This document shows, piece after piece, positions 7,236 through 37,872 of a DNA stretch of 54,255 nucleotides (position 1 is the first letter of the stretch; every line of letters starts with the position of its first letter). Below the pieces are notes generated by a model. The model was not told the DNA's origin, did not search any database, and saw only the letters and a program-made list of their open reading frames with translations. Made by a program: the position numbers and the translations under genes. This DNA is from an archaeon (GTDB lineage: Archaea; Nanobdellota; Nanobdellia; Pacearchaeales; GW2011-AR1), in the NCBI GenBank assembly GCA_043810775.1, contig JBDRNU010000011.1, forward strand, positions 1 to 54,255. The letters are read 5' to 3'.

Positions 7236-8162
7236 TTATGGGAGTTTTTCTATTTCTTTTATCTCACCACTATAAGGATTTATCTCAATTTTTCTACGAG
7301 AAGCAGGAACTATAATATCTTTATATTCTGGCTCTACCCAGACATCCTTGTAATATCCCTCTTTAACTTTTACTTTAGTCTTCTTTGTAAAAGTATCTTT
7401 AGTATCATCCCAGTGTTCTTTATTAGTAAATGGTAAAAATAAAGTTCCCATTATAGTTCTAGGAATCCCATACATTATTCCATTTTCAATATCAGCTACC
7501 TCTCTTTCTTCATACTCTGGCTCTACCCATTGCTTATCATAATGCCCTTCACTAATTAATCTTCTTTCAACTCTCTTAGAAACATTCTCAACCGCAGTAT
7601 AATTAAAAGATTTTATATCTTTAAGCAATTTTTCCTCGCCAGGAAAATCATCTTTTTTAATATCAGAATATAATCTTCTTATATTTGATTGAATTTCACC
7701 AGGAGGAAATCTGGCTGGACTTTTTTTAATTTGATCAAATCTTTCCATATATTCAGATTTTTTGTTTAGTTTTGCAATTTCTGGGTCTATAGTCTCATCA
7801 TCATATCTAGTAACTAACTCACCAAGTGAACCAAACCTGCCAGACCATTCTTTAGCTAATTTTTTCTGAAGTTCTTCGCTAATTCTATCAGCTTCCTGAA
7901 TATTTCCAGCTGAAACACTCTGTTCAACCTGTTTAAATTCACCGTGATACTCTAAATATCTTTTCTGCCTCCTATCCTGAGTGTCCTTTACACCAGCAAA
8001 AGCTATTAATGAAGCTAATCCAATATAAAATAATAAATGTAAAGTTGGTGCAAAATCAAATTTACGTTTAGCTTTAATTGGGCTAACTTCCGTTTTAGGC
8101 TGTTCAGATTGTTCAATTTTTCCAAAATTTACTAACTCTTCCTCTAGATTATCCATCTTCAA
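7236..8162 (-). CDS. NLEEEL-leader, single-TM protein of the PY(S/T)GE family
   Basis: MDNLEEELVNF (likely ATG at 8156); TM LHLLFYIGLASLIAFAGV; internal repeat EG(H/Y)YxxxWVEPEY; ends INPYSGEIKEI. Confidence 0.8.
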   Translation of the reverse strand: MKMDNLEEELVNFGKIEQSEQPKTEVSPIKAKRKFDFAPTLHLLFYIGLASLIAFAGVKDTQDRRQKRYLEYHGEFKQVEQSVSAGNIQEADRISEELQKKLAKEWSGRFGSLGELVTRYDDETIDPEIAKLNKKSEYMERFDQIKKSPARFPPGEIQSNIRRLYSDIKKDDFPGEEKLLKDIKSFNYTAVENVSKRVERRLISEGHYDKQWVEPEYEEREVADIENGIMYGIPRTIMGTLFLPFTNKEHWDDTKDTFTKKTKVKVKEGYYKDVWVEPEYKDIIVPASRRKIEINPYSGEIKEIEKLP

Positions 8163-8997
8163 TCAATCCATACTTTTTCCACATAGGAACTTTTCTTGCA
8201 ATTCTCTCTGCCTCTTCCCTACTCATTTTCCCATTATTTACATCATCTTGCATAATCCCCATAATACTTTCAAAATCTTCATCGCCCCTATGCACTTTTC
8301 TCATGCTTTTTTCAGCTTTACGGGAGAAAAAACCAGGAGTATAACTTGAAGAAGTAGTTGGAAAACCACTACTCTCTGTCTGCCTCATTAAATCAAAAGC
8401 TTTAGGAAGATTTCTGGAAATTTCATCTATTTTCCTCCAATCTAAATCCTCACCTTGATCTGCTCTATCTGATAAACCTTTAATTACATGAGGTAATAAA
8501 CCAGGATCTACCACTTTTCCTAAATTTTCCTGAATTTGAGATAATAAAGGGTTCGAAGTTCTTGGAGGAATATAAGGTTCTGCAGGTTTACCATATAGCA
8601 CTTCATCTGCAAGTTTTTGATACTCAGGAGAAATGCCAGGAATTCGTGATTTTAGCTCAGGATTTATAAGTTCAATCTTCTCTCCAGAAGGTGTATGGAA
8701 CATATCTATAGGTCTAAGTTCTGGTTCAGGAAAAATATCTCTAACTTCATCTGAATCAGGAAAGCCATATCTTTTCCTGTAATCTCTAACAGCTTCGATT
8801 GCTTTTCTTAGAGCAGTATCTTTATCTGGTTTTCCAGTAACTCCATCATAATCTCTCTTTGCTTTTTTAAATTCCTCAGGAGTAGGACTTTCAGCTTCTT
8901 TGCTCAATTCAACTAGCTCTTGTTCTAGATTTTCAGGCTGTTCAGATTGTTCAATTCTTCCAAAATTTACTAATTCTTCCTCTAAATTTTCGCTCAT
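8149..8997 (-). CDS. Soluble hypothetical protein with two tandem NLE(E/Q)EL leaders
   Basis: MSENLEEELVNFGRIEQSEQP-ENLEQELVELSKEAE; no TM. Confidence 0.8.
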   Translation of the reverse strand: MSENLEEELVNFGRIEQSEQPENLEQELVELSKEAESPTPEEFKKAKRDYDGVTGKPDKDTALRKAIEAVRDYRKRYGFPDSDEVRDIFPEPELRPIDMFHTPSGEKIELINPELKSRIPGISPEYQKLADEVLYGKPAEPYIPPRTSNPLLSQIQENLGKVVDPGLLPHVIKGLSDRADQGEDLDWRKIDEISRNLPKAFDLMRQTESSGFPTTSSSYTPGFFSRKAEKSMRKVHRGDEDFESIMGIMQDDVNNGKMSREEAERIARKVPMWKKYGLIEDG

Positions 8998-9027
8998 TTT
9001 CTTATAAATCTAATTTTATATTTAATT

Positions 9028-9972
9028 TTATCTTTTTGCAAAAAAATCCTGCACGTTTTTATTACCATATAATTTAAAATCAGTAATGTTTATTCCAATT
9101 TTATCCCCATATCTATCAGAAACATCTTCAGACTCTCCTTTAAAAGGATTACATTTATGTATCCTTTTTATTCTTTTATTGAAACAATAAGTTCCAGCCC
9201 AACTTAAAGTAGCTAAAGGGGCAAAATTTAATTCAACTTCAGGACTAATATAAGTGAATCCTTTTATCTCGTCTAATAATTCTTGATAAGCTCTTTGATC
9301 AGATTCTTTATAAATACTTTTTACAAGTCCTCTAATTTCATCATAGATCTTTGCATCATCAATTAAAACAGAGTTTCGCCCCACTGAAGACATATAAAGC
9401 TGACAATTAAGCGGTTTCTTAATCTCCTCAAACCTTCTCTGATACCAAGTATTTACCTTAGTATGCTCTGGTTTTTTTTGGTCAACTTCAAATTCAAGTC
9501 TAGACTTCTCCATAAGCTCAGCTTTTCTTGCTTCATCTCTTGCCAGTACTTGATCATACCAACTGGGAGTTTCTTCTTTTGTTTCCCGAGTAATAGGATT
9601 TAAAGTTTCATACTCCTTTTTTTCAGCTGGCTTAGGTTTTTCAAACTTTTCAGGTTCAGGAGGTTTAATTTTCTCTTCTAGTTTGCTCTCTTTAACAGGC
9701 TCTAATCTTGCTATTTCAGTATCTTTAGGTTCATACTGCTCCACAATAGGGGAGCTTTCATGAAACATCCTCTTTTTTATCGCATAATCCATACCACAAA
9801 CAAAGGCAAACCCAAAAAGAGCCACCAATCCAGCAGGAATTAAAGTCTTCCAATTAGGACCTTTTTTATATTTTTTAATTTCTATTGGTTCAGATAAAGA
9901 TGTTGAAGGTTCTAAATTTTTAGCTTCCCTTGCCAGTTCAGCTAGCTCTTGCTCTAGATTATCTTTTTCCAC
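9028..9972 (-). CDS. NLEQEL-leader, single-TM protein (paralog of 21244-22191)
   Basis: GTG start; KKGPNWKTLIPAGLVALFGFAFVCGMDYA; FAPLA...NKRI...NPFKGE. Confidence 0.8.
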   Translation of the reverse strand: MEKDNLEQELAELAREAKNLEPSTSLSEPIEIKKYKKGPNWKTLIPAGLVALFGFAFVCGMDYAIKKRMFHESSPIVEQYEPKDTEIARLEPVKESKLEEKIKPPEPEKFEKPKPAEKKEYETLNPITRETKEETPSWYDQVLARDEARKAELMEKSRLEFEVDQKKPEHTKVNTWYQRRFEEIKKPLNCQLYMSSVGRNSVLIDDAKIYDEIRGLVKSIYKESDQRAYQELLDEIKGFTYISPEVELNFAPLATLSWAGTYCFNKRIKRIHKCNPFKGESEDVSDRYGDKIGINITDFKLYGNKNVQDFFAKR

Positions 9973-36595: not shown

Positions 36596-36600
36596 TTTTC

Positions 36601-37242
36601 CTACTCAGATTTTCCTTCGTAGCTCTGTTCAGGAGCTACAACTTCAGGAACTGCCTGCTCTGGGCCTATTTCAGGTTGCACTACTTTCTCTCCATTTGAA
36701 GGCAAATAGTTTTTTACAGTTTCAGCAAATAAGTCATACATCTCATTAGCTTTTTCCATCATTGAATCAGCTAAACCCTTAGCTTTCTTCTTAGCTTCAC
36801 TTGCCATCTGCATTCCTCTCTGCTTAGCTTCAAACTTTACAGTTTCATATCTTTCTTCAAAACTTCCAACTGTAGTTCTTCCGTTTACGTACTGAATTTT
36901 CCCCTCATACTCTGCATTGTTATTAACTAATACAGGGAAATTACCTTCTGGAGTCTCTTTCAGTACAAGCCTTAAATCTCTATATTCAACAGCTCCTTCT
37001 GCTGTTCTTCCAGGATTTGCATCAGCCTTAAAGTTATGAAAGCTCTCCAATCCCCTATCAATTACCTCTTCATAAGCTGCTGGATTTTCTGTCATCCTTT
37101 CCTCAAGCTTACTTAAAAGTTCAGGTGGAGTAATTGGAGATATTGCAGTCTTCAAGATATATCCTGCTAAAAAGCCTACAGCTAAAATTCCTGCTCCACA
37201 TCCTGCTACAGTTCCCCTTCCAATTCCATTTTTATTGCTCAT
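36601..37242 (-). CDS. N-terminally anchored membrane protein
   Basis: Gly-rich TM GCGAGILAVGFLAGYIL; SD GGAGG. Confidence 0.75.
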   Translation of the reverse strand: MSNKNGIGRGTVAGCGAGILAVGFLAGYILKTAISPITPPELLSKLEERMTENPAAYEEVIDRGLESFHNFKADANPGRTAEGAVEYRDLRLVLKETPEGNFPVLVNNNAEYEGKIQYVNGRTTVGSFEERYETVKFEAKQRGMQMASEAKKKAKGLADSMMEKANEMYDLFAETVKNYLPSNGEKVVQPEIGPEQAVPEVVAPEQSYEGKSE

Positions 37243-37266
37243 TTTTTCCTCCTGTTAAATTTAAAA

Positions 37267-37872
37267 TCATACACTTTTCATTTTCCATTTTCTGACAGTC
37301 TCTTTTGCAAATAATTTAGTTCTAGCAGCAATCTCTTTCCTCTTATACACTCCAGCTGCAACGCCCCCAGCTGCTAATAATAAAACATAAGGCAAAGCGC
37401 TTCCATCCTCTTCCTGCCTCTGAATCGGCATTGAAGACCTATTATAAACTATTTTTTCAGGATCAACTCCCTTAGGAAGTCTTTCTTTTGCATAATTGGC
37501 AATTTCTTTAGATTCAGCAAAAAAATACTCAATCTCAGTCCCACTAGCTGTCTGAATCCTTCCTCTCAAACCATCATAAATAAAATTATTATTTGCAGGC
37601 AAAAAATCTGTGCCAATAGTATACTGTGGCTGGTTAGTCATATCATTATACACCTTCTTCTCAAGCTTTCCTCTAGAGTTTTCTTCATCTCTAAAAGACA
37701 AATTTCCAGGATGAGAAAATTCCTCATGCCTTAATTTGCTTAAAAAAATAACATATTCTGCCCTATCAACAAAATAATGTGCTTTTGCCCCAGCATAAAA
37801 AGCAAAAGCTAATGCAGCTACACTTACTGAACCTCTTAAAATACTACCTAAAATTCCACCTAATCTTGGCAT
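37267..37872 (-). CDS. Two-TM membrane protein
   Basis: Hydrophobic helices near both termini; directly downstream of promoter module copy 2. Confidence 0.75.
   Translation of the reverse strand: MPRLGGILGSILRGSVSVAALAFAFYAGAKAHYFVDRAEYVIFLSKLRHEEFSHPGNLSFRDEENSRGKLEKKVYNDMTNQPQYTIGTDFLPANNNFIYDGLRGRIQTASGTEIEYFFAESKEIANYAKERLPKGVDPEKIVYNRSSMPIQRQEEDGSALPYVLLLAAGGVAAGVYKRKEIAARTKLFAKETVRKWKMKSV

Follow-up and report, generated by a model that had tools for sequence, protein, structure and literature searches.

Variable surface lipoprotein families encoded by tandem paralogous lipoprotein genes are known from a reduced-genome symbiont, Mycoplasma (vlp, vsp, and vsa). The locus described here shares with them tandem lipoprotein paralogues and near-identical signal-peptide DNA preceding divergent mature parts; it differs in that no invertase was seen in the block and no phase-variation switch in its array, that the genes lie within one long operon tied to ATPases and a kinase, and that the array has a second leader type, predicted to be cytoplasmic. 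The MCM and primase-helicase ATPases of archaeal viruses and plasmids resemble one ATPase of the block, whose fold is nearest to the MCM AAA+ domain with winged helix and whose distant relatives occur in mobile elements. Unlike them, this ATPase (TM-scores only ~0.4, 12–16% identity) lacks both a primase domain and the OB or zinc domain found at the MCM N-terminus, and in every case its neighbors are an AAA unfoldase and a helical or transglutaminase-fold (TGase) protein, not replication genes. In their published account, vWA-MoxR ternary and related conflict systems are mobile neighborhoods with AAA+ cores, kinase and PP2C pairs, transglutaminase-like thiol peptidases, and variable downstream genes with a common N-terminal adaptor, and just a few archaeal occurrences are reported there (PMC7159879). 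These features have counterparts in our locus, two variants of which also contain MoxR and vWA. Unlike the systems presented in that account, the window studied here (the whole 54,255-nt stretch analyzed) contains no MoxR, vWA, STAND, or GTPase protein, has a classical AAA and an MCM-fold AAA+ ATPase as its core pair, carries mostly lipoproteins and membrane proteins as variable genes, and belongs to DPANN archaea. The bifidobacterial PFNA cluster (kinase, FN3, AAA, DUF58, and transglutaminase), whose products are thought to work at the cell surface, likewise encodes a Ser/Thr kinase, an AAA+ ATPase, and a transglutaminase-like protein together; as described, it is bacterial, its AAA is MoxR-type with DUF58, and it is without the classical AAA, MCM-fold ATPase, TrmB, and leader array, all four of which are present in our block (PMC8430577). 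The Thermococcales hypervariable Ig-domain gene module has no evident homologous parts in the block, which encodes no Ig-domain giant proteins, and that module, as far as its description extends, has no ATPase, kinase, or TrmB core (PMC8416519). No system model of Pfam, NCBIfam, PADLOC, or PHROG fitted the block, in agreement with the first-pass annotation, which had recognized no named system with this layout.

Comparison by blastn of the genome carrying the window (G000) with a genome of the same genus (G001) demonstrated that the whole 31-kb block is an indel (7202..37940), a finding new to this analysis. Homology stops at 7201 and restarts at 37941, the G001 junction is ~295 bp, and ftsY and srp54 are ~300 bp apart in G001 versus 30.7 kb in the window. 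One of 40 relatives carried the MCM-fold ATPase, which served as signature gene. Strong matches to it (E ≤ 7e-40) turned up in 25 other genomes among 400 sampled from the phylum and in none of 27 from the family to which the window belongs; at E ≤ 1e-30, the ATPase family numbered 226 representatives out of 1.84 billion. The island is accessory, and its synteny is conserved. Among 13 other DPANN loci, the core order of helical protein, classical AAA, and MCM-fold AAA+ was maintained in all, often continued by the TGase protein, TrmB, the LDH-like protein, PP2C, and kinase; a TrmB orthologue adjoined the core in 12, and the LDH-like, PP2C, and kinase module and the PD-(D/E)xK orthologue were each found in 10. 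ORFs immediately after the kinase carried a similar N-terminal acidic helix in all eight loci that continue past it, and one genome (G041) had eight acidic-helix ORFs and ~7 tandem lipoproteins. The conserved neighborhood that the first-pass annotation had proposed to look for in DPANN genomes was thus found.

The tight minus-strand block recognized previously at 7236–37872 was confirmed by the ORF layout (Table 1). From 7236 to 27259, the minus strand carries 24 ORFs of 100 aa or more, which abut or overlap their neighbors by 4–17 nt and together with a 29-aa mini-ORF make up the 25 ORFs counted before; the run is broken by two gaps (30 nt at 8998–9027 and 62 nt at 17951–18012) rather than by the first alone.

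Table 1. Features of the block, in coordinates of the window.
Feature	Coordinates	Strand	Evidence or remark
Array, 21 ORFs and one 29-aa mini-ORF, shared leaders, shuffled bodies	7236..22853	-	BLASTP, alignments
Family-A lipoprotein paralogues, four in tandem	9959..12559	-	BLASTP, alignment; further copies 14068-14745, 15590-16321
Mini-ORF, 29 aa, leader alone (MENKNLEKELSQLEREAKEV...)	17934..18023	-	Spans 62-nt gap; other frame than next gene
Hanks-type Ser/Thr kinase	22850..24283	-	Pfam Pkinase 4.4e-32; C-terminal extension ~180 aa
PP2C phosphatase	24267..25076	-	Pfam PP2C_2 7.9e-11; Stp1-type model 5.4e-32, under that model's cutoff
LDH-like fusion, 729 aa	25070..27259	-	N-half LDH/MDH fold, matches 1a5z at 5.6e-17
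Divergent promoter region, TrmB / long operon	27260..27421	.	CTACAAC-N6-TTTTAT and palindrome TTGTAG-N9-CTACAA
TrmB-family regulator, divergent	27422..28177	+	Pfam TrmB 1.2e-17
Transglutaminase-core protein, 801 aa	28174..30579	-	Pfam Transglut_core 2.6e-8; long helical N-half, Cys-His-Asp domain residues 534-624
AAA+ ATPase, MCM-like fold, C-terminal winged-helix-like domains; signature gene	30576..32006	-	Structure comparison
Classical-clade AAA ATPase (p97, Msp1, Rix7, Rpt-like)	32003..33595	-	Pfam AAA 9.7e-7; own helical N-domain residues 1-235
Helical, coiled-coil-like protein, 415 aa	33631..34878	-	Always upstream of AAA gene
Promoter element, 36 nt	34928..34963	-	Identical to 37899-37934
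111-aa ORF, TTG start	35175..35510	-	By eye only, resembles N-terminus of 33631-34878
Small single-pass membrane protein	35559..35960	-	Kept even in minimal system versions
PD-(D/E)xK (Mrr-like) protein, D...EAK motif	35963..36595	-	Mrr_cat 4.2e-4, just under cutoff
Two membrane proteins, 213 and 201 aa, opening island	36601..37872	-	ORF and TM calls
Promoter element, 36 nt	37899..37934	-	Identical to 34928-34963

Pfam matches verified the neighboring PP2C phosphatase and Hanks-type kinase and the divergent TrmB regulator, and the two AAA+ ATPases also proved correct, the classical one being modeled with an aromatic pore-loop residue. The coiled-coil label given to the 415-aa helical protein and to the N-half of the transglutaminase-core protein derives from sequence appearance and low-confidence Atlas neighbors, and is retained here as coiled-coil-like. 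The 111-aa ORF had no BLASTP match among the island ORFs and no Pfam match. The kinase keeps the HRD, N, and D(L/F)G motifs, and the stop of its gene overlaps the start of the first array gene. The LDH-like N-half retains the LDxxR and GxH substrate/catalytic motifs, and its C-half (~330 aa) gave no match. The identity of the promoters claimed earlier holds over the 36 nt shared by two operons, for which the chance expectation is 0; each of the three island promoters has CTACAAC followed, after 6 or 7 nt, by a TATA-like box, and comparable shared promoter pieces occur in loci L004 and L039. Judging from these promoter sequences, co-regulation of the island operons is plausible.

Next, we focused on the array, for which all-against-all BLASTP and alignments bore out the shared leaders and shared bodies. 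Its 21 ORFs comprise 12 with an acidic N-terminal helix, beginning with xNLE(E/Q)(E/Q)L, seven with a lipoprotein-type leader, MKNKLLNFLLA..(S/T)SC, and two of the signal-peptide type; the leader MKNKLIPLVFAGVLLA is common to two ORFs. Body families consist of the six family-A lipoproteins; 9028-9972 with 21244-22191 and in part 12549-13271; 17471-17950, 19034-19603, and 20005-20580; and the TPR bodies 13268-14071, 18013-19050, and 20577-21254. TPR and NPY(S/T)GE-ending bodies stand behind Sec-type, lipoprotein-type, and acidic leaders alike. ORF 12549-13271 combines the family-A leader with a different body, and 60 nt of its leader DNA are 100% identical to that of 11265-11906, the bodies being unrelated. 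The array is expanded in G000 and shows leader swapping, which supports its earlier description as diversifying. Among 1938 genome ORFs, the acidic motif occurred within the first 25 residues in 15, 12 of them in the array, and at any position in 17; the leader DNA pattern was counted 12 times in G000 (11 in the island), never in G001, and zero to three times in each of 24 other relatives. Among the sequences compared, the leader is restricted to the island of G000. In six of the 12 acidic-leader proteins a TM helix starts at residues 24–43 after a K/R-rich stretch, which by the positive-inside rule places the leader in the cytoplasm and argues that it is not a secretion signal; the other six have no TM, so the label of envelope protein is not carried to them. 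The lipoprotein leaders are ordinary Sec-type.

Taken together, we tentatively favor, at somewhat less than an even chance, a TrmB-controlled system, exchanged horizontally among Woesearchaeota-type DPANN archaea, that would make and regulate variable cell-envelope proteins and handle them by means of an N-terminal grip lying in the cytoplasm. A putative cytoplasmic motor would comprise the helical protein, the classical AAA as an unfoldase-type ATPase, the MCM-fold AAA+ with its winged-helix domains, the helical protein with a transglutaminase-fold thiol-enzyme domain, the small membrane proteins, and the PD-(D/E)xK protein. Control would lie with TrmB acting on the shared operator-promoter of all three operons, with the LDH-fold protein, which keeps its substrate-binding residues and probably senses or converts NAD(H) or a 2-hydroxyacid, and with PP2C and the kinase. 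The third module, co-transcribed with the kinase, would supply lipoproteins and type-II membrane or soluble proteins starting with the short acidic amphipathic helix; this leader may remain cytoplasmic as a handle on which a core component (kinase, AAA, or TGase protein) docks in order to phosphorylate, organize, extract, or process the leader proteins. Gene duplication and leader swapping in G000 may diversify the symbiont surface. This model leaves unexplained the DNA transactions suggested by two of its parts, the MCM-fold ATPase and PD-(D/E)xK, and it is further weakened by relatives of the ATPase found in a halovirus, in a plasmid, and, beside replication genes, in a viral contig. Moreover, the motor has some function apart from the array, since the minimal versions L046 and L048 have neither kinase module nor leader ORFs; Transglut_core was undetected by Pfam in four of five position-equivalent proteins scanned (L038, L040, L044, and L050; present in L039), and some variants carry conflict-system modules.

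These last modules bear on an alternative that we consider unlikely, in which the locus is an NTPase-centered biological-conflict system of the general kind of Kaur et al. (2020), acting in immunity or in antagonistic relations of the symbiont with its host or with competitors. A regulated core would then consist of the AAA+ ATPases, kinase, and PP2C, and the shared N-terminal adaptor helix would recruit the TGase-fold peptidase, the PD-(D/E)xK protein, and the leader-tagged proteins as effectors, sensors, or decoys. Kinases with PP2C, transglutaminase-like thiol peptidases, and adaptor domains common to effectors are themes of conflict systems in the published account (PMC7159879), and the patchy, island-like distribution and variable downstream genes are consistent with it, as are the MoxR-like AAA (AAA_5 6.1e-8, bpMoxR 4.5e-3) and vWA protein embedded in L004 and L039 and the ThiF E1 (1.3e-33) with a weak JAB match in L016. 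However, the window itself lacks such MoxR and vWA proteins, the PADLOC models yielded only generic kinase similarity and one weak P-loop match, a Pfam scan of 15 array proteins revealed neither toxin nor effector domains, and the array proteins mostly look envelope-type rather than like intracellular effectors. The leader, at only ~15 residues, is also far shorter than the adaptor domains described for conflict systems.

The indel and patchy phyletic spread also suit an integrated mobile element (a plasmid, membrane-vesicle element, or pleomorphic-virus-like element), which would use the MCM-fold AAA+ as replicative helicase, TrmB as switch, PD-(D/E)xK and AAA for DNA processing or assembly, and the lipoproteins and membrane proteins as envelope or spike proteins diversifying for host range. 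Besides its MCM-like fold, the signature ATPase matches phrog_12057 (7e-9), Halorubrum tailed virus 25 (31% identity across 37% of length), a plasmid 'DNA primase' (28% identity), and a homologue (30% identity) in an IMG/VR contig whose neighbors resemble polB, a Cas4-like nuclease, UDG, and ThyX, as read by eye rather than by a family scan. A tyrosine recombinase adjoins the minimal system in L048 and lies ~5 kb from the array in L043; however, that of L048 may be a housekeeping Xer, since it shares 53% identity with a gene located on a different contig of G000, and neither the window nor the 11 remaining loci yielded an integrase. The borders showed no direct repeat of at least 12 nt and no att repeat, the GC content of the block equals that of the genome, the block contains neither primase nor polymerase, no structural virus or capsid gene was found in it with Pfam or PHROG, the 10 core proteins had no capsid, terminase, or portal PHROG match, and the single viral contig found with an ATPase homologue lacks the rest of the system. 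This origin, the provirus or plasmid counter-case of the first-pass annotation, seems improbable to us.

A dedicated cargo-export apparatus, in which the ATPases would read the acidic leader as a secretion signal on exported cargo, could account for a common N-terminal tag on diverse bodies beside two ATPases and for the same bodies occurring behind several leader types, but is very unlikely, as the conserved core has single-pass membrane proteins only and no polytopic channel, neither ATPase falls in a secretion-ATPase family, and in six of the 12 proteins the leader is placed in the cytoplasm. Of the first-pass interpretation, an inducible host-contact or cargo-export apparatus with a diversifying payload array, the conserved neighborhood, plausible co-regulation, and expanded array stand, and no sign of an export channel was seen; the block might conceivably serve in host contact. 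Finally, the family-A lipoprotein has a homologue in G044, and hhalign related it to a lipoprotein of locus L013 with a probability of 98.2%.

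The window corresponds to one complete contig (C11, 54,255 bp). The island lies exactly between ftsY and srp54, two genes that sit close together in G001, a genome of the same genus. In a blastn-type comparison, nucleotide homology with G001 ran at about 72-75% up to position 7201 and resumed at 37941; the junction between the two genes is about 295 bp in G001 and 30.7 kb in the window, so that the coordinates of the finding (7236-37872) coincide with a 30.7-kb indel. With its 30.7 kb, the island accounts for 3.1% of an assembly of 995 kb (26 contigs, GC about 33%, completeness about 80%) and has the same GC content as the rest of it. 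Both flanks carry housekeeping genes, as judged from translations and Pfam, including two tRNAs, ribosomal protein S3Ae, GINS, an exonuclease, phosphoglycerate mutase, GMP synthase, and aIF2-alpha, as well as a Bud32-like kinase, S15, and a RecJ-like gene that were named from translations without a family scan. The phosphoglycerate mutase gene forms a second indel, with the syntenic G001 site lacking the gene.

Features of the island and its surroundings, with recurrence among 13 related loci
Feature	Position	Strand	Assignment	Related loci
Phosphoglycerate mutase (flank)	3402-4649	-
ftsY, SRP receptor (flank)	5450-6571
Array, 21 ORFs	7236-22853	-
Double-leader protein	8149-8997	-
Leader-only ORF, 29 aa	17934-18023	-
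Hanks kinase	22850-24283	-	Pfam Pkinase, 4.4e-32	8/13
PP2C	24267-25076	-	Pfam PP2C_2, 7.9e-11	8/13
LDH-fold fusion	25070-27259	-		10/13 (8 from BLASTP, 2 from position plus alignment)
TrmB	27422-28177	+	PF01978, 1.2e-17, above cutoff; N-terminal winged helix-turn-helix	12/13, beside core
Transglutaminase-fold protein	28174-30579	-	Pfam Transglut_core, residues 534-624
MCM-fold AAA+ ATPase	30576-32006
AAA ATPase	32003-33595	-	Pfam AAA
Helical protein	33631-34878
111-aa ORF	35175-35510	-
PD-(D/E)xK protein	35963-36595	-	Pfam Mrr_cat, near threshold
srp54 (flank)	37982-39352
1906-aa ORF	48062-53782	-	No Pfam match

Of 40 relatives, one had the MCM-fold ATPase, which was not found in G001. A set of 5.8 billion proteins contained 15 homologues, none of them named, and 226 cluster representatives among 1.84 billion were obtained at E ≤ 1e-30. 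When 400 other genomes of the phylum were scanned, 25 from many families gave strong matches, as did none of 27 genomes of the window's own family; the other 71 matches in the phylum scan covered the P-loop only. The genomes with related loci belong to the same class as the genome under study. We compared 13 loci (in G035, G041, G042, G043, G044, G383, G115, G127, G261, G349, G110, G372, and G117), and the resulting counts leave out 15 further positive genomes. The order of helical protein, AAA ATPase, and MCM-fold AAA+ ATPase was kept in all 13, and the conserved neighbourhood that the first-pass annotation had expected of the core genes was thus found. Minimal versions (loci L046 and L048) comprised only these three genes, TrmB, and a small membrane protein. 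A gene for an AsnC/Lrp-type HTH protein lay near small membrane genes in three loci (L007, 3149-3613; L015, 4560-5012; L050, 15844-16302), assigned by Pfam for the L007 copy and by eye for the other two; the window has none.

AlphaFold2 models of both ATPases were built on orthologue alignments. The AAA model (pLDDT 82) belonged to the classical clade and had its own helical N-domain, with Foldseek matches to p97, Msp1, Rix7, and Rpt at about 1e-8. The classical AAA fold was accompanied by Walker A and B and by an aromatic residue in the pore loop, with Walker A reading GQGKG in the window rather than GK(T/S). The other model (pLDDT 77) showed an MCM-like AAA+ fold followed by C-terminal winged-helix-like domains; its Foldseek matches, MCM2-7 and SsoMCM, had E-values of about 2e-8 and TM-scores near 0.4, and primase, OB, and zinc domains were not found in it. 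The helical protein had generic long-helix neighbours only in the ESM Atlas (TM ≤ 0.42), which we treat as a lead only.

In the kinase module, the kinase retains the HRD, N, and DLG motifs, and its gene overlaps that of PP2C. A profile of the N-terminal half of the fusion protein matched LDH/MDH structures (1a5z at 5.6e-17), with the LDxxR and GxH motifs aligned, and the single sequence gave no Pfam Ldh match. The C-terminal half had no match; that it forms a beta-propeller is only a guess.

The kinase module is followed by the array, and over 7236-27259 the two together comprise 24 minus-strand ORFs of at least 100 aa that overlap or abut; this continuous run stood as first described, except that it is interrupted by two gaps (30 and 62 nt) and not by one. 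Nowhere from 27259 to 7236 is there enough space for a promoter, and the kinase module and array therefore look like a single operon of about 20 kb. All-against-all BLASTP and alignments confirmed that the array proteins combine common leaders with shuffled bodies. Twelve ORFs start with xNLE(E/Q)(E/Q)L, in which L6, E7, and L10 are invariant in the alignment, seven carry a lipoprotein-type leader ending in (S/T)SC, and two share another signal peptide. Within the first 25 residues, the acidic leader motif occurred in 15 of 1938 ORFs of the genome: 12 in the array, two on contig C7, and one spurious overlapping ORF. The corresponding DNA pattern was counted 12 times in this genome, never in G001, and 0-3 times in each of 24 other relatives, indicating that the leader genes travel with the island. 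The two leader ORFs on C7 (41840-42649 and 47150-48310, minus strand) lie amid housekeeping genes such as those for PEP synthase and ribosomal proteins, and a search of 30 relatives did not recover the protein of the former.

Six of the 12 leader proteins have a TM helix that begins at residues 24-43, after a K/R-rich stretch, which by the positive-inside rule places the leader in the cytoplasm and the body outside. Exchange of leaders appears to be recent: a 60-nt stretch of signal-peptide DNA is 100% identical between ORFs 11265-11906 and 12549-13271, whose bodies belong to different families, and signal-peptide DNA is 92% identical between genes whose proteins are 35% identical, such near identity on divergent bodies being the signature of this process. 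The double-leader protein carries tandem copies at about residues 4-15 and 22-33 (ENLEEELVNFG...ENLEQELVELS). The leader-only ORF (MENKNLEKELSQLEREAKEV...) spans the 62-nt gap and overlaps the stop of ORF 18013-19050 and the start of ORF 17471-17950, both of which are read in a different frame. Two interpretations fit it: a double leader that has undergone a frameshift, or a leader peptide that stands free. A double-glycine bacteriocin leader was rejected, as just 1 of the 12 array leaders has GG after its helix. For the bodies, a profile of family A, a lipoprotein family, recovered only the window's own seven proteins from the 5.8 billion, in a search whose word prefilter means that it does not show the family to stand alone; hhalign detected a homologue in locus L013 of G044 with a probability of 98.2%. 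The ESM Atlas gave ORF 19034-19603 a low-confidence YbjQ-like neighbour (TM about 0.5; lead only).

Leader-bearing ORFs also accompany the core elsewhere, as the first-pass annotation had anticipated: in all eight loci that could be followed past the kinase, an acidic amphipathic helix opens the next ORF (for example EDLEKRLSEITEE, SLEERLDAVRKK, KDLEELLKR, and TLLELVDEIV), often followed by a TM helix and with lipoproteins nearby. G041 has eight acidic-helix ORFs and about seven tandem lipoproteins, and most other genomes have two to four such ORFs, so that a conserved feature has been expanded in the window's array. Visual inspection showed a leader-like acidic-Leu helix at the start of several AAA orthologues (NELEERLV, NLEDRLL, LSLDETLLEE), a possible hint that these helices pair with those of the leaders.

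An identical 36-nt stretch precedes ORF 37267-37872 and the helical protein gene, and all three island promoters have a TATA-like box with CTACAAC 6 or 7 nt upstream of it. Genome-wide, a loose CTACAAC/TATA pattern had five sites, three of them the island promoters, a count that is descriptive because the pattern was derived from these sites. Similar pieces, such as ACTACAAC...TTTATAT, are common to two promoters in locus L004 and in locus L039, and offer independent support for common island promoters. The palindrome TTGT-N12-ACAA was discarded owing to wrong spacing, with two chance-level matches elsewhere. The 111-aa ORF adjoins the duplicated promoter (region 34879-35174), which suggests local duplication; by eye it echoes the N-terminal motif of the helical protein (IDEIEAEEKL versus VDEIEAEGKL), and BLASTP at 1e-3 did not report the pair.

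As first proposed, the layout corresponded to no named system recognised by PADLOC, PHROGs, or NCBIfam. PADLOC 2.0 gave only generic kinase matches (mad6, PD-T4-6) and one weak mad8 match at 1.1e-3, and the literature searched contained no description of the gene set, although supplementary files could hold such loci. Membership in ESCRT-III/Vps4 (Cdv-like) systems was rejected, as Pfam gave no Snf7 or MIT match; Foldseek aligned only the ATPase part of the AAA protein. The array leader may resemble MIM1 motifs, and the ESCRT-like reading is retained only as an analogy for how leaders might be recognised.

We tentatively favour an envelope-handling system, which would explain the tight operon link between kinase and leaders, the cytoplasmic position of the leader, and the expansion of lipoproteins. 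This reading leaves unexplained the two parts with a DNA flavour, the MCM fold and the PD-(D/E)xK protein. The genomes of DPANN archaea are tiny and their lifestyle is mostly one of attachment to other cells, and to our knowledge little is understood of how their contact surface is built and varied. The island is missing from the sister species, the same core order recurs across many DPANN families, and it would link a sensor/kinase/phosphatase unit and two AAA+ motors to expandable envelope proteins with a common cytoplasmic tag. If it handles the surface, it provides a concrete, testable way to approach how uncultured symbiotic archaea recognise hosts and vary their surface, and would be a new use of a classical AAA paired with an MCM-fold ATPase; if it is a mobile element or defence system instead, it would still be a new type for the lineage.

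That the island is an integrated provirus or plasmid, one of the outcomes that the first-pass annotation had named as refuting its proposal, is unlikely. Presence or absence at a fixed site, with 30.7 kb missing from G001, was indeed observed, and the predicted MCM-like fold would suit such an element. Distant relatives of this ATPase occur in a halovirus, in a plasmid "DNA primase", and in an IMG/VR contig whose neighbouring genes, judged from their sequences, read as polB, a Cas4-like nuclease, UDG, and ThyX. However, Pfam revealed no integrase or recombinase in 28 of 34 island ORFs and 18 flank ORFs, two tyrosine recombinases used as tblastn queries had no match in the window, and no direct repeats of at least 12 nt that could serve as att sites were found in 200-nt windows around both borders (best common word, a 10-mer). 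Among 10 core proteins, PHROGs matched only the kinase, PP2C, and phrog_12057 (unknown function), with no capsid, portal, or terminase. A recombinase beside L048 is 53% identical to a gene elsewhere in the genome under study and thus may be a housekeeping Xer, and a scan of viral contigs with the single ATPase sequence found nothing. Three DNA runs from groundwater and biofilm metagenomes (share of words 0.06-0.14; contigs of 150-450 nt at depth 2-4) had joints with short, untrustworthy sides of 20-47 nt, which say nothing on excision or cassette turnover.

An NTPase-centred conflict system is likewise improbable. It would fit the MoxR and vWA genes, which mark vWA-MoxR ternary systems, inserted in 2 of the 13 related loci (L004 and L039); neither gene has a counterpart in the window. 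It would also fit a ThiF E1-like gene (1.3e-33) beside a weakly JAB-like one, embedded between leader-plus-TM genes in the array of G043 (L016, 5914-9448), along with themes set out in PMC7159879. As in polymorphic toxin/effector cassette arrays, the tandem genes of the array do keep their N-terminal part and vary in their C-terminal parts, but Pfam recognised no effector or toxin domain in 15 array proteins, which gave TPR matches or nothing.

More doubtful still is the idea of a programmable surface switch, an archaeal machine of a kind not described before, whose genes would move as one 10-30 kb island from one DPANN lineage to another. Here the LDH-fold protein would sense a host-derived metabolite or redox state and pass the signal via the kinase and PP2C. 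The Cdc48/Msp1-like AAA, acting with the MCM-fold AAA+ and the transglutaminase-fold enzyme, would grip type-II membrane proteins by a cytoplasmic handle, the 15 residues at their N-terminus, and would then install, extract, or process them, allowing the episymbiont to alter its contact surface. That the island encodes a dedicated export machine seems very improbable.

Two further observations concern proteins outside the island. The 1906-aa ORF, with a GC content of 0.38-0.41 versus about 0.33, may encode a giant surface protein. On contig C3 (12497-13791, plus strand), the island kinase has a paralogue that is divided over two ORFs in swapped domain order, with the C-terminal domain (54% identity) preceding the kinase domain (42% identity), and that lies amid secreted proteins of 1030-1755 aa.
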